DNA from: Candidatus Latescibacterota bacterium
GTDB lineage: Bacteria; Latescibacterota; CBDEFO01
Reading direction: 5' to 3'
Length of the DNA: 64,000 nucleotides
NCBI GenBank assembly: GCA_965237525.1
Contig: CBDEFO010000004.1
Coordinates: 96,001 to 160,000, forward strand
Shown here piece after piece: positions 63 through 52,087 of the stretch. The position numbers and the translations under genes were made by a program. The notes beneath the pieces are model-generated. The model did not search any database. It was not told the origin of the DNA and worked only from the letters and a program-made list of their open reading frames with translations. Position 1 is the stretch's first letter; the number at the start of each line of letters is the position of its first letter.

Positions 63-3000
63 ATGAGTGCAATGAATAAGCGAACGCAACTTACTGAAAA
101 AGCTACACGTATTCCCGATACGCGCCAAGTGCAGTGGGAGGAGGTCATCCCACAATATCTGCGAGAAGTCGAGCAACAGAACAAAGAATCGGCACGTTCG
201 CACCGCTTTGCGATGCTTGTTCAGCAACTCCTTAGCATTGAACCCGACTTCATAGAGAACTATAGCAGTGGCATTGAGCAATACCTAAAGGTCAAGCAGA
301 AGGATCGTATCTTGAAGGGTAAAGCGGATAACCTCTTTGGCAATGTTATTATTGAGTTTGAGAGTAACATTCCGGGAAAACTCTCTGAAGCTGAAGGACA
401 ACTGTGCCGCTATGTCGCAATTCTCTGGTCACAAGAACCCCCTGATGCCCGTACACCGTACCTGTGCATCGCCACAGATGGGGTCCGATTCGTAACCTAC
501 TCACCAACGCTCGCTGACACAATCACGGAAGATGTGACGCCTGATGACGTGCGCCTTGAAGTGCTTGAAGAAGCGGATTGGACAAAACTCAAACCCAATG
601 AGGTTTTCTACTGGCTCGACCGGTATTTCCTGCGCAAAGAGCTTTTGACTCCCAAAAGTGAGGAGATCGTCCGCGATTTTGGTGTGAGAAGCCACGCCTT
701 TCAAACCACCACGAGCGCGCTTTTTACCCTGTGGCAGGAGATTAAAGGGCAAAGTGCCTTCGCAGTGATTTACGATAGTTGGGAAAAATATCTGCGTATT
801 GTGTACGGAAGTGAGGTTGCAGGCGATGAACTCTTCGTCCGGCATACATATCTAGCAACCCTGGCGAAACTGATGTCATGGGTGCGCATTAGCGAAATCA
901 CAAGTTTGCCCGATAACGCGCTAATCGTCCAGATGCTCGAAGGGCGATTGTTCAAGGCTCAGGGCATAGAGAATTTCATCGAGGAGGATTTCTTCTCGTG
1001 GCTGGCGCGCCTAAAAGACGAAAAAGTCGGAGTTGACGTAGTGCGTTGGCTATTCAGCCTCTTACAGAATTACAATCTGCGTGAACTCTCAGAGGATGTG
1101 TTGAAATCGCTGTATCAAGAGTTGGTGGACCCCGAAACACGGCATGACCTGGGCGAGTTCTACACCCCCGATTGGCTGGCACATCGCATCGTCCACAAGT
1201 TGCTCGATGCCAATCCGCGCGGCGCGTGTTTTGATCCTGCTTGTGGTTCAGGAACGTTTCTCTATCTTGCGATCAGAGAAAAGATTGATCGACTTAATCG
1301 TTCCTTATCCACACTAGACCATATTCTTGACTCAGTATATGGCGCAGACGTTCACCCGCTCGCGGTCATCGTTGCCAAGACAAACTACATCCTTGCCCTT
1401 GGGGATTTGCTCAAGAAGCGGAAAGGTGCAGTCACTATCCCGATTTACCTGACAGATACGATCAAATTGCCCGAACGATGGTCAAAGACTGAGACCGCAG
1501 ACTACCTAATTACAATCAATGATCGTCCTATTCATCTACCTGAAGCACTGCTCAGTAATTTCGACCCAGCGATTGAACTGGCGAAAGAGTTTGCACAGCA
1601 AAATAGAGGTAAACCTATCTCTACAGAAGAGTTCCGCAACTTTCTCACAGTACAAGGTTTCCGCGATGTTGACCATATTGAGAAGCTCTTTGCCCTTACC
1701 AGCGTGCTGAAGGACTTCATTGATACTGACCGTGACACGATCTGGGCATTTGTACTCAAAAACATCTACAAACCGCTCTCTTTCAAAAACAGATTCGATT
1801 TCGTCATGGGCAATCCACCCTGGATCTCATTCCGTTTTATGGAGTCCGACTATCAGAAATTTCTGAAAAGTCAAATCACGCAGGAGTATAAATTGCTCAC
1901 TGGAAGAGGTGAACTCATTACCCAGACGGAGGTGGCGACGCTGTTTCTCATGCGTGCTGCAGATTTGTATCTCAAAAGTGGCGGGACGATTGGCTTTGTC
2001 TTGCCCAGAAGCCTGTTCAGTGCCGACCAACATGATGGGTTGCGCAAACATAGCTTCAAATTTAGTGAAGACGAAGGACAAACACTTTCCTTCCGCGAGG
2101 TTTGGGACTGCGAGAATGTCAAGCCATTGTTCAACGTGCCTGCCTGTGTGTTGATAGCAGATAAAGGTCAGACAGCCAAGATGGAATATCCAATCGCAGG
2201 ACAGATTTTAAGCGGAAAACTCGAACGAAAAAATGCCTCGCTCGAAGAAGCTGAGGAAACACTTACAATAGAAGACACTGAGTTTTCACTTCACACGCGC
2301 GGCAAGCGGTCATTTTGGGCGACGGGCACTGCTGTGTCTACATACACAGAGAGCTACTATAAGAAGCGGTTCTTGTTGGGTGCAACGATTTTCCCACGCT
2401 CCTTCTGGTTTGTGCAAGTGCAACCATCACCGCTTGGATTCGATCCAAATCACCTCCGCTGGAAACAGCCGACCGAGCAAGAAAGGAGGCTAAGGAAGCG
2501 TACAAAAGTGTGTTTTTCAGGGATACCGTTGAAAGCCGATTTCTTTATGCGACGCTTCTGTCCACCGATTTGCTCCCGTTCGGGCATCTTGATCATCGTT
2601 TAGTCGTGTTGCCAATTGAACCGGAAGGAGACCACTACAGACTTTTTGATGCAAACGAAGCACATCGGAGAGGCTTTCTGAGTCTGGAGCGATGGCTTGG
2701 GAAGGCGGAAAAAGAGTGGAACACGCGGCGCGGATCAAAGGCAAGTCGAATGAAAGTCTATGAGCGACTTGACCGATTTCACGGGCTGACGACACAAAAT
2801 CCACAAGCTAAATATCGGGTAGTTTACAACACTTCAGGCACACATCTGACGGCGGCTGTCGTCGAAGACGAGCCAATCGAGTTTGAAGTCAATGGGCAGT
2901 ATCTCACGGTACAGGGATTCCTTGTGGATTATACGACTTATTATTATGAACTAACCTACAGCCATGAAGCTTTCTACTTAGCAGCTGTTCTTAACGCGCC

Positions 3001-3289
3001 TGTAATTGATAGGCTAATCAAGCCGATGCAGAGCCGTGGCTTGTGGGGACCGCGTCACATCTGCAAAAAAGTCCTAGAACTTCCTATCCACCAGTTTCAT
3101 ACAGCTAATCCCGTCCATTGCAAGTTAGCAGAGTTGGGTGAAGAATACAGCACCAAAGTGCAGCAGTGGCTCGCAAGCGGTGGAAAAGGTAAGATCAAGA
3201 GCATCGGCAAGTTGCGCGGGATCGTGCGAGAAATGTTAAAGGACGAATTAGAGGAAATTGATAGGATGGTCAAGGAGATTCTTGTATAA
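63..3289 (+). pseudogene. Type IIG-like fused restriction endonuclease / N6-adenine methyltransferase, frameshifted near 2450
   Basis: GEFYTP, DPACGSGTF and NPPW methyltransferase motifs; N-terminal D..EFE nuclease-like motif. ORFs 63-2603 and 2510-3289 join if one base is added near 2450 (PLETADRARKEAKEAYKSVFFRD...). Confidence 0.8.
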
Positions 3290-3586: not shown

Positions 3587-4726
3587 TCAGCTCTGCCGAT
3601 AGACCCGCCCGCCCTTGACAACCGCCACGGGCACGAGCTTCTGCTTGCCGATGCGCATGTCGCCGTCCGTGTCCTGCAACTGGAATTCGCCAGAACGTAA
3701 TTCGAAGACGACCGCATCGCCCCATGCTCCGACCGAGAGTGTACCGATTTTATCTGGCATCAAAATTGTCTGAGCAGGAACAGCCGTAACCTTCGCGATC
3801 GCGTTGTCGAGCGTCAAGCCCAGACGGAGAAACTTGGTAACCACCGTCGCCAGGTCGTAGACGGGACCGTCTATGTTGTAAATGTGCAGGTCCGATGAGA
3901 TAGTTTGAGGCTCGACTCCCTGCTCCATCGCTCGTTCAGCAACCTTCCAGTTGAACGATCCTGCGCCGTGCCCAACATCGAAAACAACGCCGCGCTCCAT
4001 CGCCTCACGCACCGATTTTCGCACTTGACCATGATCGTCCAGGATGCCGCACGCCATACCGTGGAAGCAGTGAGTCATGATGTCGCGCTCGCGCATAACG
4101 GCTAAAATATCGTCAATCGAGGCGCACCAGGCATCCTGCGGATGAACCATGATGGGCAATCCGGCCGCGCCTGCGGCCTCGCGCGCTCGGTGCAGGGGCG
4201 ACATCCCTGACTTCTCGCTGACGATGAGGTTCTTTGTAAGTCGAACCTTCACACCCAGAATCACATCGCGGTGCTTTTCTATCATCTGGCACGCTTTGTC
4301 CACATTTGCGTACTCAGGGATTTCGAACTCACCGATTTCGACGGTCAGCATCCCCTGTGACGAAATGTTGAGCTGCGCCAGGATACGCGTTCCGCTCACC
4401 TCAATCACATACTTGCGAAAGCCCGGAAAGGTGTCCGCTCCCGCAGAACCTGCGTCGACCACTGTGGTTGCTCCCTTAGCCAGACAGGTAGGGTCAGGCT
4501 CGATGCCGAAGTGGCTGACGCCGTAGAACACATGGACGTGCAAATCGATCATCCCTGGCGTGACGATGCGACCACTTGCGTCCAGCACCTCGCGCGCCTC
4601 CGTCTTAGACAGATCATCATCGACAGCGGAAACGACGCCATCTGTAAAAGCCACGTCCTTTTTCGCGTGGAGCTTCAGTGCAGGGTCGACGAGCGTCCCG
4701 CCTTTGACAAGCAAGTCATAAGTCAT
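3587..4726 (-). CDS. Amidohydrolase/deacetylase-family metallohydrolase (dihydroorotase-like)
   Basis: PGMIDLHVH, VVDAGSAG, THCFHG, FDVGHG and ISSDLH motifs; GGAGG RBS. Confidence 0.9.
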   Translation of the reverse strand: MTYDLLVKGGTLVDPALKLHAKKDVAFTDGVVSAVDDDLSKTEAREVLDASGRIVTPGMIDLHVHVFYGVSHFGIEPDPTCLAKGATTVVDAGSAGADTFPGFRKYVIEVSGTRILAQLNISSQGMLTVEIGEFEIPEYANVDKACQMIEKHRDVILGVKVRLTKNLIVSEKSGMSPLHRAREAAGAAGLPIMVHPQDAWCASIDDILAVMRERDIMTHCFHGMACGILDDHGQVRKSVREAMERGVVFDVGHGAGSFNWKVAERAMEQGVEPQTISSDLHIYNIDGPVYDLATVVTKFLRLGLTLDNAIAKVTAVPAQTILMPDKIGTLSVGAWGDAVVFELRSGEFQLQDTDGDMRIGKQKLVPVAVVKGGRVYRQS

Positions 4727-4785
4727 GTTTCAACCTCCATATTCGTCTTCTTGTAACGGATGTTTCCTTCCATTGCTGTGCCAAC

Positions 4786-4814
4786 AGCTTAAGCATAAAA
4801 CACAAAGTTGTCAA
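4786..4814 (-). promoter_or_regulatory. Sigma70-like promoter of the amidohydrolase
   Basis: TTGACA-17-TAAGCT on the minus strand; conserved in copy B. Confidence 0.65.
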
Positions 4815-4958
4815 TAAAAATTTGAGGGGATGCTATTTTGAGCAGACATGGGAGGAGCATTCCTACTGCAGAATACTTGTGGTTTTGTCAAGGGGAGAGC
4901 GTACCAAAATATCGGAGTTTGCACTACTTGTTTCAAAATTAGACATGAAATAATATGG

Positions 4959-4987
4959 TTGACTTTCAAGGGTTATAAGAGTAGATT
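4959..4987 (+). promoter_or_regulatory. Pc-like cassette promoter, copy A
   Basis: TTGACT-17-TAGATT; hexamers and spacing are conserved in three copies while the spacer sequence varies. Confidence 0.7.
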
Positions 4988-5038
4988 GCACATGGGTTAG
5001 GAATTATTATCTAAGTTCTGAATAAAAGGAATGGCGTT

Positions 5039-5947
5039 ATGTCGCAGCATTTTCATCACCTGCAGACCGAGGAATTGTCACTTGTGATTGGGGACAACTC
5101 CGCGCATCAGGACCACCAAGCAGGATACAACGGCATCTGGCAGATCACATCAGTTCACGATTGTCGACCCTTGTTCGTGCCCAGGTATTGCGGTATGAAC
5201 TTTGAGTTTATTGCTCCCTTGTCTGCTCCGCACGCGACGGAGCCCAAAGATCACCCCACAGAATTGCTTGTTGATGACAAACTGCGTCAGGTCACTCTGT
5301 ACCAGACGCCCACCTCCGAGCACCATGTCGAAAGTTGGATGACCTATCGGACGGCAGGCCCTTCCCACGTGGATTGGACTTTCCGCTATCGCCTGCATGA
5401 TTCAGGGGCGTTTCCCACGGAATTTGCCGGTTTCTTCTTTGCCAATTACATCCATCAACCGGAGAACAAGGCTATTTACCTGTTGAGTCGGGATGCCTAT
5501 GACGCGCTGATGTGGATTCAGTTTTGTACGACGTTTCAGGGTCGAGACAGTGCAGTAACCTGGGAGGCCGATTCGTACGATTTGCATTTCGGGCCACATG
5601 ACCGCGGATTGTATACATCACGTGCACCCATTCGGTACACTGTTCCGATGATGTTGGGCCGCCGTGGTGACATGGCGTTCGTATTGATGTTTGAAAGTCC
5701 TCGTGGCGTCGTGATCTCGCACGGTATGGGCGGAGGTGGCTTTGTCGAAGATCGTTCGGACCGTAACCCGGCGTGGGATTTCTTTCTCTATGCGAGGGAT
5801 ACTGCAGAGCATCCAGAAGGACAATGGAACGGCCGACTGGTTTATAAGACATTTCTGGGCCGCGATGAGATCCTGAGTGAGTATCAGGACTTCCAGCGTT
5901 CGTTGGGTCACAACTGGACAATTCCGTCTTATGGACCCGATGCATAG
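5039..5947 (+). CDS. Cassette gene, hypothetical protein (possibly aldose-epimerase/mutarotase-like beta-sandwich)
   Basis: 302-aa ORF bounded by GTTATGT (5036) and its reverse complement ACATAAC (5999). Confidence 0.7.
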   Translation: MSQHFHHLQTEELSLVIGDNSAHQDHQAGYNGIWQITSVHDCRPLFVPRYCGMNFEFIAPLSAPHATEPKDHPTELLVDDKLRQVTLYQTPTSEHHVESWMTYRTAGPSHVDWTFRYRLHDSGAFPTEFAGFFFANYIHQPENKAIYLLSRDAYDALMWIQFCTTFQGRDSAVTWEADSYDLHFGPHDRGLYTSRAPIRYTVPMMLGRRGDMAFVLMFESPRGVVISHGMGGGGFVEDRSDRNPAWDFFLYARDTAEHPEGQWNGRLVYKTFLGRDEILSEYQDFQRSLGHNWTIPSYGPDA

Positions 5948-5998
5948 TCCGGTTCGGCGTCGGCTACAATACCAAAGCGGTCAAATTTCCTGGGTCAG

Positions 5999-6030
5999 AC
6001 ATAACAAGGCAAACGGAGGGTACCCGCTTG
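5999..6030 (+). other. Truncated attC (left half)
   Basis: ACATAACAAGGC R''-like start; no matching right arm. Confidence 0.5.
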
Positions 6031-6076
6031 AGTTCCCGATGTAGGACGATTTCTCAAACATATTGAGATGATATTT

Positions 6077-6139
6077 ACCGAACAACCGGTTACACACCGA
6101 ACGCGGAGGACCGCGCGTGTGAGCCGTATGACGTTATGC
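6077..6139 (+). other. attC site
   Basis: ACCGAAC...GTTATGC, 63 bp, with an imperfect internal inverted repeat. Confidence 0.75.
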
Positions 6140-6161
6140 ATTCTGAATAGGAGGAATTAGC

Positions 6162-7049
6162 ATGCGGCCTCAGATAAGCAGTCAGTGGTGGCAGGTGGCG
6201 GGCAATCCTAATCTGAGACATTACGGAACGCCTCACCAGCAGCCTGTTGATTTCGCGATATGGCAAGCAGAAGACAGCACTTGGCAGCTGTGGTCCTGCA
6301 TCAGACACACCGCCTGCGGCGGACAGACGAGGCTGTTCTACAGATGGGAGGGAACAGACCTAAAGCAGGAGCATTGGGAGCCGAAGGGCGTCGCCATGGA
6401 GGCGAGGGTTGACCTCGGCGAGACGGAAGGCGGCCTTCAGGCCCCACATGTCATCAAAGAGAACGACACGTACTACATGTTCTATGGAGACTGGAATCGC
6501 ATTTGCCTTGCCAGCAGCAGGGACGGAAAATCGTTCGAGCGCGTGTTGGGGAAAAACGGCCAACCCGACCTCTTTTCCGGGCCGTACGAGAACAGCCGCG
6601 ACCCCATGGTTCTGACGGTCGACGGTGTTTTTCACTGCTACTACACGGGGCACAAGGAAGACGCAAAGCCGGCGGCAGCCGTCTTCTGCCGCACTTCTCC
6701 CGATCTCCTCGATTGGAGCGATCCCGTCGTTGTGTGTGCGGGAGGGGCCGCCGCCAGACAAACTGGTTGGTTAGGAAATTGTGAATGTCCATTCGTCGTT
6801 GAAGTCGACGGATTGTTCTGTCTGTTCCGCAATCAGAGATATGGGGTGGACAACCTTAATACACAATACTGCTCGCCTGACCCGCTGAGTTTCGGAATCG
6901 ACGACGATCGCTTTTATGTGGGGACACTGCCCGTTGCCGCACCGGAGATCATAGAACACAGGGGACGGTACTACATTGCGGCATTACTGCCTGATCTGAC
7001 GGGCTTCCGGATTGCAGAGCTCGACTGGGTCGATCAGGATAATGCATAA
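6162..7049 (+). CDS. Cassette gene: five-bladed beta-propeller glycoside hydrolase-like protein (GH32/43/130-like)
   Basis: APHV..YYMFY, RDPMV, ECPFV and APEII blade motifs; bounded by GTTATGC and GCATAAC (perfect complements). Confidence 0.8.
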   Translation: MRPQISSQWWQVAGNPNLRHYGTPHQQPVDFAIWQAEDSTWQLWSCIRHTACGGQTRLFYRWEGTDLKQEHWEPKGVAMEARVDLGETEGGLQAPHVIKENDTYYMFYGDWNRICLASSRDGKSFERVLGKNGQPDLFSGPYENSRDPMVLTVDGVFHCYYTGHKEDAKPAAAVFCRTSPDLLDWSDPVVVCAGGAAARQTGWLGNCECPFVVEVDGLFCLFRNQRYGVDNLNTQYCSPDPLSFGIDDDRFYVGTLPVAAPEIIEHRGRYYIAALLPDLTGFRIAELDWVDQDNA

Positions 7050-7100
7050 CTACTGTTTCCAGCCGATGGCTGGAAGCCGCGCCTGAAGCACACGTTCGGC
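7044..7100 (+). other. attC site
   Basis: GCATAAC overlapping the stop codon ... GTTCGGC; L boxes TGTTTCCAG/CTGAAGCA with one extrahelical base. Confidence 0.85.
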
Positions 7101-7136
7101 ATCAGTAAGATTAGAACTGGCATCCCCCTACAGAGA

Positions 7137-7350
7137 ATGGATCTCTTAATGAATTCGCAGATCAAGATTACACGGAATCCTGTCTTTGACGGGACCATCA
7201 GTCCCTTCATTTATGGTGAATTCGTGGAGTTTATAAATGACCTGATCCCTGGCATGTGGGCAGAGATGATCCGGGATCGTTCGTTCGAAGGGTTTTCGCA
7301 GCCAACGTATTTCTACCGCAAGGAGAAGGACTTCCCCAAGCCAGCATGGC
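7137..7350 (+). pseudogene. Truncated alpha-L-arabinofuranosidase (GH51)-like cassette gene, N-terminus only
   Basis: ISPFIYGEFVE..GMWAEMIRDRSFE; cut off by the duplicated block starting at 7347. Confidence 0.65.
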
Positions 7351-7846
7351 GTGAGATTCGGCCACTTGCGTTCAGCATCTCGCGCGCCTCCGTCTTAGGC
7401 AGATCATCACCGACAGCGGAAACGAGGGCATTTGTAAAAGCCACGTCCTTTTTCGCGTGGAGCTTCAGTGCAGGGTCGACGAGCTGCCCGCCTTTGACAA
7501 GCAAGTCATAAGTCATATTTCAACCTCCATATTCGTCTTCTTGTAACGGATGTTTCCTTCCATTGCTGTGCCAACAGCTTAAGCATAAAACAGAAAGTTG
7601 TCAATAAAAATTTGAGGGGATGCTATTTTGAGCAGACATGGGAGGGGCATCCCTACTGCAAAATTCTTGTCGCTCTGTCAAGGAAAGCAGTGCCAAAATA
7701 TCGGAGTTTGCACTATTTGTTTCAAAATTAGACATGAAATAATATGGTTGACTTTCAAAGGGTATAACAATAAATTGGAGATTGGTTTTCAATCATTATC
7801 TAAGTTATGATAACTGAAAGTTATTTTGGTTAACTAATAGTTCGCC
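7347..7846. repeat. Platform copy B: amidohydrolase 5' fragment (minus, 7347-7516), Pc and attI-like site
   Basis: Near-identical to copy A; Pc TTGACT(7748)-17-TAAATT; ends GGTTAACTAATA-GTTCGCC at the cassette start (7840). Confidence 0.85.
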
Positions 7847-7875
7847 TTTGACAATTAATGGGAGGCCTGAGCCAT

Positions 7876-8358
7876 ATGTTTGATATGCTGGTGAAGTTGT
7901 ATGATCTGCCCGCAGTAGAGCCTTCTGTCAGGGGTCTAAGGGAACAGGGGGTAGGTGTCCGTCGCGCGATGTCCTACGAAAAAGCCGAGGTGATCAAATG
8001 GGTCGACGGCAAATTTGTCGGTGAGTGGACAAGTGAAAGCGACGTTGCTTTTAGTAACCATCCCATTTCCTGTTTTCTAGCCACAGAGGAAGGCGAGATC
8101 ATAGGTTTTGCCTGCTATGACTGCACCTGCAAGAATTTCTTCGGACCCACAGGTGTTGTCGAAGAGAAGCGCTCTCGCGGAATTGGCAAAGCATTGTTAC
8201 TGTGCTGTCTACACGCTATGGCGGCAAACGGATACGGTTACGCAATCATAGGCGGGGTTGGTCCTGCTGATTTCTACGCAAAAGCGGTAGGTGCAGTTGA
8301 GATCAAAGGCTCATCTCCCGGAGTCTACCGCGATCGGTTGAAGAAGACGGAAAGCTAA
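7876..8358 (+). CDS. Cassette gene: GNAT-family N-acetyltransferase
   Basis: GPTGV..KRSRGIGKALL and FYAKAVG motifs; GGAGG RBS; stop codon overlaps the attC. Confidence 0.9.
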   Translation: MFDMLVKLYDLPAVEPSVRGLREQGVGVRRAMSYEKAEVIKWVDGKFVGEWTSESDVAFSNHPISCFLATEEGEIIGFACYDCTCKNFFGPTGVVEEKRSRGIGKALLLCCLHAMAANGYGYAIIGGVGPADFYAKAVGAVEIKGSSPGVYRDRLKKTES

Positions 8359-8415
8359 CAAGATGCGTGCACGGTACGGTGCTGGACATGCCCACCGTAA
8401 AGCAAGACGTTGGGC
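8353..8415 (+). other. attC site
   Basis: AGCTAAC...GTTGGGC, 63 bp, with internal TACGGT/ACCGTA stem. Confidence 0.7.
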
Positions 8416-8594
8416 TGGAGGGAAGTCCATAGATGACAGTGCAAAGAACCACACTCTTGATACCAGGACGGAACAAAACTCATTCTATGGAGAAGGAGAG
8501 TTAAACAGGGGGCTCAGAGGCCCGGCGGCGGGCGGATGTCAAATGGCGAAAATGTCTGTTTATTTGATCTATGGGCTATGAGCAGTGAGGACTT

Positions 8595-9722
8595 ATGATA
8601 CGGAGCGCCATCCATTGGCACAAGGTGATATGCCGGCAACCCGGCGACTTCATCGGCTTCCCAACAGTGACGCAGACGGCAGACGGCGAGATCCTGGCCA
8701 TCTTCTCCGGAGACCGTGAGACTCATCATTGCCCCTACGGCAAGAGCCAGCTCATCCGTAGCAGCGATGGAGGCGAGACGTGGTCGGCGGCCGAGACTGT
8801 AAATAACACGCCGTTGGACGACCGTGACGCCGGCATTGTCGCACTAACATCAGGAACGCTGGTCATGAGTTGGTTCGTCACTGACACCCGCGAGGTCCTG
8901 GAAAATTACCGCGGACCCGTACCAAACAAGGCGTGGGGTCTCTGGCCAACGCCAAAGGAGTGGGAGTCCTGGCGGCGGCACTGTGACAAGATTCCCGACG
9001 ACGTCCGAAAGCAGTGGGTCGGAACCAAGATCCACGAACCCTATACCCGACGATCGACTGATGGGGGACGGACCTGGGAAGAACCGGTGCGATCAATCGT
9101 GATGACGCCGCATGGTCCGATCCAGCTAAGCGATGGGAGTCTCCGTTTCGTCGGAATCATCACAGACGAGGGTGGCGAAGGCGCAAGGACTCTGGCTTGC
9201 GCCGCTTCGACCGATGAGGCACGGTCATGGAGCTTGATCGGGACTATGTCCGTAGATAAGAGGTTCGGCGAAACTCACACCTTTAGCGAGCCGCACGCCG
9301 TCGAAGTAGACGACGGGCGGCTCGTCTGTATGTGGCGGCACACCCCGAGCGACAAAGATGCCTCCCAGCATTTTCTGCATCAGTGCGAAAGCGACGACGG
9401 CGGCAAGACATGGAGCGTGATCAGGCCGACACCCATCTGGGGCTATCCGGCCCATCTGCTCCGCCTTCATTGCGGCGACGTGCTGGCCAGTTACGGATAC
9501 CGCCGCGAACCCATGGGACAGCGCGCCTGCTTGAGCCATGACGGCTGCGCCACGTGGGACGTGGACAACGAGATTGTGCTCCGCGACGATGCCACGAGCG
9601 TAGATCTGGGCTATCCCTCGACCGTGGAACTCGAACCGGGGGAGATGCTGACCGTCTATTACCAACTCGTGCCGCCAGATGAGAAGCCCACCCTCGTGGC
9701 GACTCGGTGGTCGCTCGCTTGA
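8595..9722 (+). CDS. Sialidase-family / BNR Asp-box repeat protein
   Basis: Five S-x-D-x-G-x-T-W-like Asp boxes; DLGYPSTVEL. Confidence 0.9.
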   Translation: MIRSAIHWHKVICRQPGDFIGFPTVTQTADGEILAIFSGDRETHHCPYGKSQLIRSSDGGETWSAAETVNNTPLDDRDAGIVALTSGTLVMSWFVTDTREVLENYRGPVPNKAWGLWPTPKEWESWRRHCDKIPDDVRKQWVGTKIHEPYTRRSTDGGRTWEEPVRSIVMTPHGPIQLSDGSLRFVGIITDEGGEGARTLACAASTDEARSWSLIGTMSVDKRFGETHTFSEPHAVEVDDGRLVCMWRHTPSDKDASQHFLHQCESDDGGKTWSVIRPTPIWGYPAHLLRLHCGDVLASYGYRREPMGQRACLSHDGCATWDVDNEIVLRDDATSVDLGYPSTVELEPGEMLTVYYQLVPPDEKPTLVATRWSLA

Positions 9723-9790
9723 CCTGAGCGACGCCTACGGTTATATGACTCGGCTCGCCAAGGTCTGGCGCACAGATTTAAGGAGAAGCT

Positions 9791-10822
9791 ATGACTCATG
9801 CAAAGATAGGCTTTGTTGGCTGCGGAACCCATGCCACAAACAACTTGTACCCGATGCTCCGATATGCGAGGTGTAGCCTGGAGACTGTATGCGATCTGGA
9901 TGAAGAGCTTGCGGCACGAAACGCTCGGCTATTCGGTGCATCCTCGTACTACGTCGATGTTGAGAAGATGCTATCCGAGAGCGATTTAGATGGGGTTCTC
10001 GTCGTTGGGCCATCTGAAATGCACTACGAGATTGGCAAAAAGGTACTTGCCTGCCGCTTGAATCTTTTTGTCGAGAAACCCCCTGCGCCTGACTTGAGGC
10101 GGACTCAGGAGCTTGTTGATCTGGCGCGGAAGAATAACGTATTCATCATGGCGGGTTTCGTGAAGCGCCACGGCATGACCTACGCCAAGGTGAGACACCT
10201 AATCGAGACGGGGCAATTCGAACCAGCGATGGGGTTTCTCAAGTACGGACACTGGCCGAACACCGATCTCCGGAGAATGGTTCTGGACATGTGTTGTCAT
10301 GCCATTGATCTTGCAATCAGCTTTTTCGGGGAGGTGTCAAGTGTAACTTCCCACCTTGTCGAATTAAGTCGGACTCTATCTCTGGCCGTGACGCTTCGTT
10401 TCCGGTCAGGAAAGGTCGCTCAACTCATGCTCGACTCGTCGCAGCCCCGGATTCAGGAACGCGTGGAGATCTCCGGGACACTCGACGGGAAGAATGCTCT
10501 GATCGTGGTAGACAACGTTCATCAGTTGGAGGTTCACAGGCAGGGACGCGACGGCATTGATCTCTTGGCTCCGAGTCTGCCAGAAGTGGTTCCTGAGTTC
10601 GATCTGGACGACATACGCGTCTGGCGTCCAGACTACGGAATCCCGAACATGGGGCAGACGCGTCACTTCTTCCAGGGCTTTGCCGGCGAGATCCGAGAGT
10701 TCGTGGACGCAATCCTGGAGAACCGTGAGCCTTACCCCTGTGCTGAAGACGCGCTGAAGACGATGGCTGTCGTTGAGGCAATTGCATCGAAACCGGATGG
10801 AACAACTGAATTTGGCGGATGA
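9791..10822 (+). CDS. Gfo/Idh/MocA-family oxidoreductase
   Basis: GFVGCG, FVEKP and DMCCHAID motifs. Confidence 0.9.
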   Translation: MTHAKIGFVGCGTHATNNLYPMLRYARCSLETVCDLDEELAARNARLFGASSYYVDVEKMLSESDLDGVLVVGPSEMHYEIGKKVLACRLNLFVEKPPAPDLRRTQELVDLARKNNVFIMAGFVKRHGMTYAKVRHLIETGQFEPAMGFLKYGHWPNTDLRRMVLDMCCHAIDLAISFFGEVSSVTSHLVELSRTLSLAVTLRFRSGKVAQLMLDSSQPRIQERVEISGTLDGKNALIVVDNVHQLEVHRQGRDGIDLLAPSLPEVVPEFDLDDIRVWRPDYGIPNMGQTRHFFQGFAGEIREFVDAILENREPYPCAEDALKTMAVVEAIASKPDGTTEFGG

Positions 10823-10839
10823 ATGCCAAGATAAGAAAG

Positions 10840-10920
10840 ACATAAGCAGCGCATGCAAATCGACTCCGAGATAGCCACCGCTTCGCGTGGACTCCTCGGA
10901 GCAAGTGATGCGCGTTTCTA
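10840..10920 (+). other. Degenerate attC site
   Basis: ACATAAG-CAGCGCATGCA ... TGATGCGC L boxes with an extrahelical G; R' box damaged. Confidence 0.55.
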
Positions 10921-10929
10921 TACTATACT

Positions 10930-10990
10930 ATTAGTGTAATTTCAGTATCCAATATTATCGTCATATTGTGCATAGAAGGTATCAGCATTC
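10930..10990 (+). repeat. Shared segment downstream of a cassette array (copy 1; copy 2 at ~13240-13301)
   Basis: TGTAATTTCAGTAT..TTATCGTCAT..GCATAGAAG..GCATTC follows the last attC at both sites. Confidence 0.75.
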
Positions 10991-11254
10991 GTCAGAGAAA
11001 TAAGATGTATACTTTAGGTGGACATTTTCAATGTCTTCTACCTCTATACCTATAAGAGATTGAATAATGCCATTAATCGAAAAGTCAAGGCAACTGTATA
11101 GATGTTGCCCTTTGTGTTAGTCTACAAGTTTCAATTTGTCGATTTCTGCTGACTGTAGGTCTCACCCTCTATACAATTCGGAACTTCCTGGATTTATAAA
11201 CTGGCAGCAATGTAATACCTTTGGTCACAATTTTGCAGATGGATACTTTACTAA

Positions 11255-11484
11255 CCCGATTAATTCATAAACTTGATGGAAGTCATTGCGAGGAGCAAAG
11301 CGACGAAGCAATCTCAAGGTTTTATAGTGGTCTCCTATCAGAGCCGGAGAGTATTACATCTACCACAGAATCGAGATTGCTTCGCCTCCGGATCGCAATG
11401 ACACCGAAGGTGGTTAAACGTCATAACTATAATATAATACAATCCCTTAATTAATATACGGCCTTTTTTTGTGAATTATTCGGG
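11255..11484 (-). mobile_element. ~230-bp MITE (IS5-like ends) carrying a REP doublet, copy 1
   Basis: Terminal inverted repeats CCCGAWTAATTCA; CTAA on both flanks; near-identical to the 21060 and 63242 copies. Confidence 0.85.
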
Positions 11485-11488
11485 CTAA

Positions 11489-12098
11489 AGAGGCAACAGA
11501 TATTCTTTTTAGCAAAACCCATGACTATCAGTTATTTAATGTTAAGGATGTTGAGAAATTTCGATGTATGTCTGCAAGATTGATTGATAAAATATCTTCT
11601 GTCTTAAATGGTCAGAAAGGTAAATGGTTGGATGTTGGTTTCGGTAACGGTTTATTAATGACGACATGTGAAGAATATGGTTTTGAGCCAGTCGGTATTG
11701 ATCTTCGCCAAATAGCTGTAGATAAGATGAAGCAACTTGAATATGAAGCTCACTGCATGGAATTAAAAAATTATAAACAATTCAATAGTTTTACAGTTAT
11801 TTCGATGGCCGACGTGTTGGAACATATGCCGTACCCAAGGGAAGCACTTTCTCATGCTCATAAATTGTTAATACCAGGGGGAGTATTGTTTATATCGTGT
11901 CCTAATATGGATTCGTTTCTTTGGAAGGCCTTAACTAAAGAAAACAAGAATCCATATTAGATAGAAATAGAGCATTATCATAATTTTGGACGGAAGCTCC
12001 TTTATTCATTATTAACTGAGCATGGATTTAACCCCTTAACTTATAGCATAAGCGAAAGATATCGAATTGGTATGGAAATTATTGCGATTCGAGAATAA
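11489..12098 (+). pseudogene. Class I SAM-dependent methyltransferase cassette gene, 5'-truncated, internal TAG
   Basis: WLDVGFGNG and DVLEHMP motifs; NPY*IEIEHYHNF continues in frame to 12098; AT-rich. Confidence 0.8.
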
Positions 12099-12102
12099 TG
12101 AA

Positions 12103-12174
12103 ATATAACAAGGCGCTACACCTGACCGCTATTCCGCTACGTTGTATAACGGCTGGTGAGCTTGGTCTTTATTT
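12103..12174 (+). other. attC site with mutated R' box
   Basis: ATATAACAAGGCGCTACACCTGACCGCTAT...GGTGAGCTTGGTC followed by TTT instead of GTT. Confidence 0.75.
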
Positions 12175-12217
12175 CACTTTGGTGAGGATGAAAGAACTGC
12201 GAGCTCAATACTGTATG

Positions 12218-12369
12218 AAAATATCGGAGTTTGTATTACTTGTTTCGAAATTAAAAATGAAATAGTGTGCTTGACTTTCAAAAGTTTTAACGGTAAATTG
12301 CAGATTGGTTATGAGTCATTATCTAGGCTATGATAAGTGGAAGTCATTTGGGTTAATTAATAATTAGGC
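12218..12369 (+). repeat. Platform copy C: Pc and attI-like site
   Basis: Aligns with ~7695-7846; TTGACT(12271)-17-TAAATT; ends GGTTAATTAATA-ATTAGGC. Confidence 0.8.
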
Positions 12370-12388
12370 TGCGCCCCAGGAGATTTGT

Positions 12389-13156
12389 ATGGGAAATCAA
12401 AAGACACTAATTGTTGGTTCCATTCTATCAGTGATACTCCTGCTTTTTCTGGGTTGGCTGCAGAGTGAAGAGGCGAAGTTTCTAAACCTTTCTCCTCAAT
12501 GGCTAGCAATCGCGGTATTGCCGGTGTTGGTAGCACTTTTTGCTGGGGGATTCATAACACGGTTCAAGGGTTTCGGCGTTGAACTAGAGGCGACTCTGAG
12601 AACACCGGTTGCATCTATGAACTTGACGGCATCCGGTGCAGTTGCAGATATCCCGGGTGATGAGAAGAAAAGCTTCCTATATATCGATAATCTACCGGAC
12701 GATAAGAAGCTCGCAACTCGGAGGCTCCTCTTTAGATCTGGACGGCAGGATTTCTACACTCCCCATGGCATCGAGCGATATGCTCAGGAACTACCAAATA
12801 TTAAGTACTTTGAGATTCGTACCGAGTCTGGAGAGATAATATGCTTTATACCGATCTCTACTTTCCGTGACACCGCCCAACCACGACGCGCTCTCGATTT
12901 CGAAAAACTAAAATTGTTGGTCCAAGCTATTAAACAGAACGAGGTTCCCAACGCTTTCAAGGAGTCTGCCATCACGTTGACGGTTTCTAATGACCAAAGT
13001 TTAGTCGATGTATTAAAGAAGATGCGAACTGAGAGCGCGGAGTTCGCACCGGTAGTATCTCCTACGGGGAAGTACTTGGGTGTGGTGTTTGCCCGTGACG
13101 TGGAGAGACGAATTGCGGATTCAGTGCTGGCGACAACGAAGGCAAGTTCAGCCTAA
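12389..13156 (+). CDS. Cassette gene: N-terminal membrane segments plus C-terminal CBS-like domain
   Basis: Two hydrophobic helices; TVSNDQSLVDVLKKM..APVVSPTGKYLGVV; bounded by ATTAGGC and GCCTAAC. Confidence 0.75.
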   Translation: MGNQKTLIVGSILSVILLLFLGWLQSEEAKFLNLSPQWLAIAVLPVLVALFAGGFITRFKGFGVELEATLRTPVASMNLTASGAVADIPGDEKKSFLYIDNLPDDKKLATRRLLFRSGRQDFYTPHGIERYAQELPNIKYFEIRTESGEIICFIPISTFRDTAQPRRALDFEKLKLLVQAIKQNEVPNAFKESAITLTVSNDQSLVDVLKKMRTESAEFAPVVSPTGKYLGVVFARDVERRIADSVLATTKASSA

Positions 13157-13239
13157 CAACAGCGTGAACGGGACCGGCTTCCAACCGGCCGGGGATTCCG
13201 CTTCCGCTCCACCGCGGTGGATGAGCCGCAGCGTTATAT
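13151..13239 (+). other. attC site (possibly a chimera of two halves)
   Basis: GCCTAAC...GTTATAT; L boxes are poorly complementary. Confidence 0.65.
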
Positions 13240-13351
13240 TTTTCATGTAATTTCAGTATGGAATTTTATCGTCATGATAGGCATAGAAGCAATCCGCATT
13301 CCCCAGCCACACAACAGATAGCAGCTCCACCTCCTTACAGGCAGAGATCGC

Positions 13352-51071: not shown

Positions 51072-51948
51072 TTCCTACAAGAACAACATCAAGCGGCACC
51101 TTAAACCGTTCTTCGGAGAGTACGAATTAACGGCTATCACACCAGAGTATATCTAGAAGTACGTCTCCAGAAGAGGAGCAAGAAGTTGTCTCCTCAGACG
51201 ATCAAGAACACGCTGTTTCCACTCAAGGAAATGTTAAAGCACGCCGTAAGATGGGGTTATCTTCGGGAAAGTCCAGCGTTATACATAGAGACGCCCAGAG
51301 TTCCCCACTACGAAATGGATTTTATGACGGTGGAGGAAATCCATATCTTCCTGAATCACGTGGCACAGAAGTGGTATGCGCTGTTCCTCACTGCTGTTAT
51401 GACCGTCATGCGTCGAGGAGAATTATTAGCTATGAAGTGGAATAACATCGACTGGAACAGAGAGCAGTACTTCGTCAGAGAGGCGCTATACAGGAAGAGT
51501 TTAGTCGAACCGAAGTCAGCTACCTCCAGAAGGGCGATCAACCTGTCTCCTACCCTAATGGACTCCCTTAGGGCGCACCGGGCACGTCAGATACGAGGAG
51601 AAGATGAGATTTGGGCCGGCCTACCAGGACCTAGACCTGGTGTTCTGCCATGAGGATGGAACACCCCTTGATCCGGATACAGTGAGAAAGCGGGAGTTCC
51701 ACAGGTATTTGAAGGATGCGGGCATCCGGCGAATCCGGTTCCACGATCTGCGTCATACTTACGCCAGCCTGTTGCTCACCCAAAGGGAAAGTCCCAAGTA
51801 CATTCAGAGTCAGTTGGGGCACTCTTCCATCCAGATCACATTTGACCGATATGGGCATCTCATGCCGGAAGCACACAAAGAGGCAGCGGAACGGCTTGAC
51901 ACAAGGGTTTTCGGATCGTTTAGTAGAAAAATAGTAGAAATTCGGTGA
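51072..51948 (+). pseudogene. Phage-type tyrosine integrase, 5'-truncated, with a stop and a frameshift
   Basis: HLKPFFG, MRRGELLA, RFHDLRHT and LGHSSIQITFDRYGH motifs. Confidence 0.9.
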
Positions 51949-52011
51949 AAGATAAGCCGAATTAAGAAATGATTAATCCCTGTAACTGATTTAATTACAA
52001 GGATTAATAGC

Positions 52012-52087
52012 TGGAGGGCTATGCGCGATTCGAACGCGCGACCTTTGGTTCCGGAGACCAACGCTCTATCCGCTGAGCTAATAGCCC
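52012..52087 (-). tRNA. tRNA-Arg (CCG)
   Basis: Cloverleaf: GGGCTAT/ATAGCCC acceptor stem, TTGGT-CTCCGGA-ACCAA anticodon arm, TTCGAAT T-loop, encoded CCA. Confidence 0.95.

Follow-up and report, generated by a model that had tools for sequence, protein, structure and literature searches.

Repeated platforms with predicted attI-like cores in a probable decayed, integrase-less integron of Candidatus Latescibacterota

INTRODUCTION

Clusters of attC sites lacking an integron integrase (CALINs) have been surveyed across genomes; half of them occur in genomes without IntI, 38% lie near insertion sequences (ISs), and their origin, gene expression and exchange were left as an open question (PMC4889954). 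Putative attI sites are usually recognised by their adjacency to intI (10.1101/2022.02.06.479319). Cassette arrays can also change by other routes: homologous recombination can swap them without IntI (PMC3410848), and anchored illegitimate recombination has been proposed for the effector-immunity arrays of Vibrio cholerae (PMC5361080). Here we describe a cassette locus in a 64,000-nucleotide stretch of a Candidatus Latescibacterota genome (the window, G000:C4:96001-160000; the genome, G000, comprises 4.58 Mb in 8 contigs and is 96.6% complete), in which a promoter-like and predicted attI-like block is repeated three times, each time ahead of a different array of genes.

On the evidence of two genomes we consider, with moderate confidence, that the locus is a decayed integrase-less integron (CALIN) that has retained a putative promoter and a predicted attI, and in which the alleles of different strains would have been stacked by anchored recombination.

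RESULTS

A repeated block with the anatomy of an integron platform

A non-coding block of 153 nt recurs at 4906, 7695 and 12218 (copies A, B and C; Table 1), as reported by the first-pass annotation of this DNA (~4905, ~7695 and 12218). Copies A and C are 74% and 82% identical to copy B, there is no fourth copy in the 4.58-Mb genome, and the first 16 bases of the block occur three times where 0.02 occurrences are expected. The motif TTGACT-17-TA(G/A)ATT is present in all three copies, as had been claimed; these promoter-like boxes score 9 of 12 consensus positions in each copy, and both are conserved across four aligned copies. Copies A and B also carry a divergent promoter-like pair. Promoter-like sites are not enriched in the region (8 found, 9.8 in shuffles).

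Copies B and C finish, as previously described, at an aligned (G/A)TT, namely GTT at 7840 and ATT at 12363, and their cores share a 7-5-7 layout of GGTTAA(C/T), five bases and G↓TT or A↓TT (arrow, crossover). The proposal that every array has an attI-like platform of its own holds for B and C and fails for A, which in G000 ends at 5017, short of the core. Three different cassettes begin at the identical aligned G↓TT or A↓TT, after B, after C and after copy A of the sister genome G001, and their start heptamers match the next R'' at 5/7 (GNAT), 6/7 (CBS) and 6/7 (DinB-like) positions. Inverted 7-bp boxes, a 5-bp spacer and G↓TT, the elements of a simple site, are all found in B and in copy A of G001; C has A↓TT instead, and copy A of G000 does not have this structure.

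The arrays behind A, B and C have no cassette gene in common, in agreement with the earlier statement that different cassettes follow each copy. Start and end heptamers had been said to be reverse complements in three pairs, and two of these are found, GTTATGC/GCATAAC (6133/7044) and ATTAGGC/GCCTAAC (12363/13151). The third, GTTATGT/ACATAAC, is not as claimed because the heptamer at 5036 overlaps a start codon and its partner at 5999 lies in no scoring attC. Behind C lies a gene from a family seen elsewhere as attC-bounded cassettes. Of its metagenomic loci, 29 were found and 24 near-full-length ones examined: an R''-like heptamer lies at or just past the gene end in 11, an attC of at least 24.9 bits follows in four (two of these duplicates) and GTTAGCC stands shortly upstream of the start in five. 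The GNAT and GH43-like genes do not appear to be generally cassette-borne, since attC hits occur at just one of seven loci of their homologues in other families.

BLAST of 168 genomes of the phylum matched the block in G000 and G001 alone, and all searches together found it in this genus only. Plasmids gave no match. Exact block patterns gave no locus in metagenome contigs or viral contigs, and three in genome contigs, which were the G001 locus itself twice and one chance match within a coding gene. A profile search of 151 genomes returned two marginal matches (G017 and G044, E about 0.008). The G017 match was rejected as a platform: its 3' portion coincides with the end of a convergent gene, attC is absent nearby and related genomes are without the matching part. 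No attC lies near the G044 match, for which attC was the feature checked. The recommended check for further platforms, or for one beside intI, has thus been run, and yields three platforms in the genome, none adjoining intI in any search. Kinship of the platform or of a 72-bp block (Table 1) with the second block described below, or with the attI region of the relative G050, was not significant against shuffles. Sites of dif type have a spacing of 6 between their TAA/TTA arms; 7 bases separate these arms here, and a dif-type site was rejected.

From its anatomy, the block likely behaves like an integron promoter/attI platform, and each copy may still serve as a putative promoter for the gene downstream. 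Were the block instead an AT-rich promoter or mobile-element remnant, with cassettes entering at nearby secondary GTT sites, this would fit the chance level of its promoter-like matches, its never being seen adjoining intI and the lack of significant similarity to the intI-linked second block or to the attI region of the relative; secondary-site integration is moreover a recognised origin of CALINs (PMC4889954). This seems very improbable when set against the single aligned base at which three different cassettes start, with a 7-5-7 inverted-repeat core ahead of it, against the end heptamers of two of these cassettes, which match at 6/7 positions, and against the membership of the gene after C in a cassette family with a start heptamer at this position. 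An Rfam search of the window, whose sole match is a tRNA away from the locus, likewise gave no match to the block.

Decayed attC sites and no intact integrase

Seven attC-like sites had been claimed, and seven candidates lie at 5999, 6077, 7044, 8353, 10840, 12103 and 13151. We scored them with models trained on sites that a rule had collected at loci in other organisms; nearly all of these loci have an intI. A two-box weight matrix (38 sites from 14 loci; leave-one-locus-out recovery 29/38 at a threshold of at least 25 bits) gives 20 hits at this threshold in G000 and one in each of two shuffles, and a covariance model was built from 20 of the collected sites, with 89% of cells paired, though the selection rule favoured pairing. 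A first rule-based scan proved too weak (6 hits in the genome, 13 in a shuffle) and was used just to choose training sites.

The claim stands in part. On the matrix, 7044, 12103 and 13151 reach 25 bits, 6077 is borderline, 10840 keeps a weak left half, and 5999 and 8353 fail. One site of the seven is significant on the covariance model (12103-12174, 34.1 bits, E 3.5e-6), which is weak at 7044 and 10840. Site 12103 is without R', 13151 folds unlike an attC, and 10840 is without a proper R' and has an altered R''. Because some attC sites score, yet carry visible defects, the arrays appear to be real but decayed. All array genes are on the plus strand. The attC sites are better preserved in G001, where two sites 7 kb apart score 44.1 and 40.3 bits on the covariance model; the matrix-passing sites 12103 and 13151 of the window lie 1 kb apart. 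In all, 10 to 20 attC sites are dispersed through the genome, and the window arrays make up one patch of them. Site 12103 resembles two plasmid sites, one of them adjoining a group II intron amid a run of small genes.

There is no IntI match in the window, in line with the first-pass annotation; the attI-like cores do not stand next to an intI, as they would in a complete integron, and no integron integrase is nearby, as in a CALIN. Searched with an integron-integrase model, G000 gives 16 weak matches, none past the cut-off, the best spanning positions 222-311 of 315, and the IntI-like ones among them are short 3' scraps at several genome sites. G001 gives 21 matches, none past the cut-off, and 17 of the 168 genomes of the phylum have a match that passes it. 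Three long intact recombinase frames in G000, considered as a non-canonical integrase, reach their highest scores with models for XerD, XerC and a phage-type integrase. Service of the arrays by a resident IntI in trans, as had been suggested, is not supported because both genomes hold intI scraps and no intact intI.

Comparison with the sister genome and origin of the three copies

G001, a one-contig Candidatus Latescibacterota genome and the sole same-genus relative of G000, is ~96% identical to it around the locus. It carries A and B in identical order, so that mis-assembly of these two repeats, one of the conditions under which the first reading would have fallen, is unlikely. Unit C is backed indirectly, by protein records, which place identical CBS and oxidoreductase proteins on one contig that, at 748,673 bases, exceeds C4 in length. 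Relatives of array proteins are recorded on two further contigs, of 84,338 and 52,214 bases.

Platform C is absent from G001; in place of unit C, that genome carries an intact attC together with a different methyltransferase cassette and one more attC. Copy A of G001 is complete with its core, and behind it lies an additional cassette of the DinB family, frameshifted, with the textbook attC of 44.1 bits; G000 is without the copy A core, the DinB-family cassette and the ensuing spacer. The first gene after B is identical in kind (GNAT) in both genomes. Whole units are thus present or absent between two genomes that are ~96% identical.

The first-pass annotation took the platform itself to have been multiplied; the boundaries do not support its multiplication as a clean unit. 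The A/B repeat is 467 bp long and starts inside the amidohydrolase gene. Both platforms bring 305 bp of amidohydrolase DNA with them, as well as an IS end, and the junction of the repeat at 7347 is an 8-bp microhomology that severs a gene after 66 codons. Unit C enters within an attC spacer, destroying R', carries a 72-bp block and exits at a 4-bp microhomology. The GTT crossover is at none of the unit joins, and copy A of G000 is divergent and without a core. Divergence along the repeat is also uneven. Upstream of A and B, a stretch of 305 bp shows 94-96% identity across the four copies of G000 and G001, which equals the genome background; the platform 3' half agrees at 36/47 positions between paralogues. 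Between the two genomes copy A agrees at 38/47 positions in the 3' half and 33/44 in the IS-end zone, and copy B at 45/46 and 38/38. This mosaic divergence points to allele replacement, and the simplest account of the two genomes is that A, B and C would be alleles of one locus type from different strains. A comparable stacking of a platform with differing cassettes is seen for the second block, both in G000 (C7:836-845 kb) and in G001.

A direct repeat of 467 bp joined at a microhomology would also be expected from a simple tandem duplication of the platform in one chromosome under active IntI, followed by independent cassette turnover and loss of intI. We regard this route as quite unlikely: the arrays share no cassette, divergence within the repeat is uneven (about 95% identity upstream, 77-83% in the platform 3' half), and unit C is without the upstream segment and missing from G001.

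A second orphan block outside the window

Elsewhere in the genome an unrelated block of about 185 bp follows intI 3' scraps and ends in AAGCCCTA then GTT (reference copy G000:C7:460441-460640). It has 19 matches in G000 (C1, C6, C7 and C8) and 12 in G001, and its place downstream of intI agrees with the same-orientation layout described for integrons of Treponema (PMC3607928). Among the 16 G000 copies that reach the crossover, five have an attC of at least 20 bits within 4 kb (four distinct sites) and nine have a strong left half, compared with 1/300 and 2/300 random windows. Tandem stacks with differing genes lie at G000:C7:836365-845138. The block also occurs in 6 of 13 genomes of another family (f6), usually in multiple copies and often adjoining intI scraps, and is a stronger case of a dispersed attI than the block of the window. 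The end of the 1266-bp IS found next to platforms A and B adjoins, or is fused with, several of its copies.

Eleven of the 12 G001 copies were examined. Six share flanks with a G000 counterpart; four of these differ just past the crossover and two agree, the orthology of two of the four differing pairs being less secure because the flank match is interrupted. In addition, about 550 bp lying after an attC in G000 (C7:461208-461759) match, at 90%, DNA behind a different platform copy in G001 (L140, G001:C1 about 1396-1397 kb), possibly through cassette relocation.

These differences keep alive, at the level of the lineage, the idea of a distributed integron, although allele exchange would look alike. 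At the window locus this would mean orphan platforms that can still recombine and that receive cassettes on the spot through a transient IntI, supplied in trans from a mobile element or incoming DNA. Simple sites remain intact in the cores of B, C and copy A of G001, each with a different first cassette, G000 and G001 differ in the sequence past the GTT of the second block at four of the six flank-sharing loci, several intI 3' scraps lie around the genome, and an IntI match past the cut-off occurs in 17/168 genomes of the phylum. We nonetheless find it doubtful, since neither G000, at 96.6% completeness, nor the one-contig G001 has an intact intI, the differences at the locus are imprecise replacements rather than clean gain or loss of cassettes, the two genomes have the same first gene after B, the majority of attC sites are damaged, and divergence starting at GTT is also expected from allele exchange. 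The broader form, in which the lineage would run a distributed integron of two unrelated integrase-less platform families (3 and about 16-19 copies) that stay loadable, with a visiting IntI refilling them and strains exchanging them, so that cassettes would be captured at many promoter-bearing sites instead of one, is likewise a tentative and rather unlikely proposition.

Features of the locus and its surroundings

The features are collected in Table 1. The 72-bp block is present in units B and C, each time after an attC, and nowhere else in the genome; it is possibly the 5' leader of a shared methyltransferase-type cassette. The miniature inverted-repeat transposable element (MITE) in the methyltransferase cassette gene, of about 230 bp, has an internal palindrome and a short target duplication at its insertion. 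The 1266-bp IS (L138:4337-5602 in G001; 14 near-full copies in G000) has IS3-type OrfA/OrfB domains and a 4-bp target duplication. In G001 the first genes behind both platforms (GNAT and DinB-like; L039:14057-14662 and L039:17789-18289) appear frameshifted, by decay or consensus error.

Immediately left of the amidohydrolase gene lies an N6-methyltransferase gene of restriction-modification type (window 63-3289), split into two overlapping frames. The G001 alignment to the window ends at about 3310, with nothing aligned further left. At about 51324-52087 a broken tyrosine-recombinase gene adjoins a tRNA gene.

Table 1. Features of the cassette locus (window coordinates; matrix and covariance-model scores in bits)
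Feature	Position	Strand	Remarks
Amidohydrolase/deacetylase-family gene, intact	3587..4726	-	NF006689, 411.6 bits, cut-off 371; left neighbour, likely recombination anchor
Duplicated 467-bp segment, copy 1	4556..5021		91% to 7347-7810; amidohydrolase 5' end, upstream DNA, IS end and platform A
IS3-type end remnant (1266-bp element)	4867..4893		Directly left of platform A
Platform A, cut short	4906..5017	+	Promoter-like boxes 4959-4987 (+), 4936-4908 (-); no attI-like core; diverges from G001 copy A
302-aa gene	5039..5947	+	No Pfam/NCBIfam family; cassette status uncertain
Lone R''-like heptamer ACATAAC	5999..6005	+	Outside any scoring attC
Degenerate attC	6077..6139	+	Matrix 19.7; hairpin z -2.7; no covariance-model hit
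GH43-like gene	6162..7049	+	Below Pfam cut-off; cassette bounded by GTTATGC/GCATAAC
attC, partly degenerate	7044..7100	+	Matrix 27.3; covariance model 15.2, E 0.18
Gene severed at duplication junction	7149..7346	+	66 codons left; no family hit
Duplicated segment, copy 2	7347..7810		8-bp microhomology start (7347-7354 = 4556-4563); amidohydrolase 5' fragment; IS-end remnant 7657-7683
Platform B	7695..7846	+	Boxes 7748-7776 (+), 7725-7697 (-); attI-like core 7828-7846 (GGTTAAC, 5 nt, G↓TTCGCC); 98-100% identical in G001
GNAT acetyltransferase gene	7876..8358	+	First behind platform B
attC remnant, AGCTAAC to GTTGGGC	8353..8415	+	Fails both models
BNR-repeat (sialidase-like) gene	8595..9722	+	No scoring attC behind it
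Gfo/Idh/MocA oxidoreductase gene	9791..10822	+	
attC remnant	10840..10923	+	Matrix 7.4 (left half only); covariance model 10.8; hairpin retained (z -2.4); altered R'', proper R' missing
72-bp block after attC	10924..10995	+	78% to 13235-13306
Methyltransferase cassette gene	11067..12098	+	Broken by stops and MITE; intact (265 aa) in G001
MITE, dispersed	11255..11484		49 genome matches of at least 200 nt; site empty in G001
Best attC	12103..12174	+	Matrix 26.0; covariance model 34.1; R' lost at unit C left junction; G001 intact, 40.3
Unit C	12167..13302	+	Absent from G001; right junction is a 4-bp microhomology
Platform C	12218..12369	+	Boxes 12271-12299; attI-like core 12351-12369 (GGTTAAT, 5 nt, A↓TTAGGC)
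255-aa gene, weak CBS domain	12389..13156	+	Cassette-borne family
attC, good end boxes	13151..13239	+	Matrix 26.1; no attC-type hairpin, z -0.2; no covariance-model hit

DISCUSSION

Our results suggest a sequence of events by which this locus may have reached its present form. In an ancestor, or in other strains, IntI would have loaded cassettes at G↓TT, and intI would then have been lost, plausibly via the IS whose end remains left of A and B. Incoming DNA would pair through a conserved anchor, which may be the amidohydrolase 5' end, the platform 5' half or an attC, and its other end would be joined through a few matching bases, leaving old and new alleles in tandem; the attC sites and genes would decay afterwards. 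A ComEC gene is present.

Several observations weigh against this reading. The near-perfect attC (44.1 bits) in the copy A cassette of G001 suggests that IntI was active fairly recently in some part of the lineage. ComEC is found in 10 of 14 control genomes and is no proof of transformation. Ordinary recombination is more frequent than the anchored illegitimate kind by orders of magnitude (PMC5361080). The stacking model is built on two genomes, which would give neither the direction of exchange nor the donors. The block was also found beside intI nowhere in the 168 phylum genomes (BLAST), the 151 genomes searched by profile, 51 fetched loci, plasmids and three exact-pattern collections, and for this reason its attI identity rests on anatomy.

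The locus and its G001 counterpart indicate that integrase-less arrays can retain and multiply a predicted docking site together with a putative promoter, and that array content is still changing between close relatives. If the stacking model is true, the locus is a relic of modest interest; if a visiting IntI still loads orphan sites, the picture of one attI per integron needs revision. Standard tools rarely detect attI sites outside the known classes, and a literature search, in which subscription journals were poorly covered, found no paper on multi-copy orphan attI platforms.

The 7-5-7 core ending in G↓TT and the promoter-like boxes facing the array are features shared with the attI/Pc (cassette promoter) platform of complete integrons, among them the same-orientation type known from Treponema (PMC3607928). 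The core letters resemble, as judged by eye, those that follow intI in G050 (AATTAATA then GTT), although the attI region of G050 has no significant overall similarity to the block. In contrast to a complete integron, with one attI (PMC3607928), the locus has no adjacent intI and three copies of the platform. Loss or truncation of intI, with arrays remaining at several loci, has been reported for Xanthomonas (10.1101/2025.06.18.660453), but the available part of that study describes no repeated attI platforms.

The conserved upstream anchor, the variable downstream modules, the truncated genes at the joins and the retention of old modules are reminiscent of the type VI secretion system effector-immunity arrays of V. 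cholerae (PMC5361080). The mechanism is proposed from sequence in both cases, and the modules here are integron platforms with their cassettes, unlike those of V. cholerae. The locus also resembles CALINs (PMC4889954), with attC-bounded genes, no intI nearby, a genome without an intact IntI and a neighbouring IS. Unlike a CALIN, the locus has most of its attC sites too decayed to score, and keeps its predicted attI/promoter platforms, in three copies and with alleles that are probably stacked.

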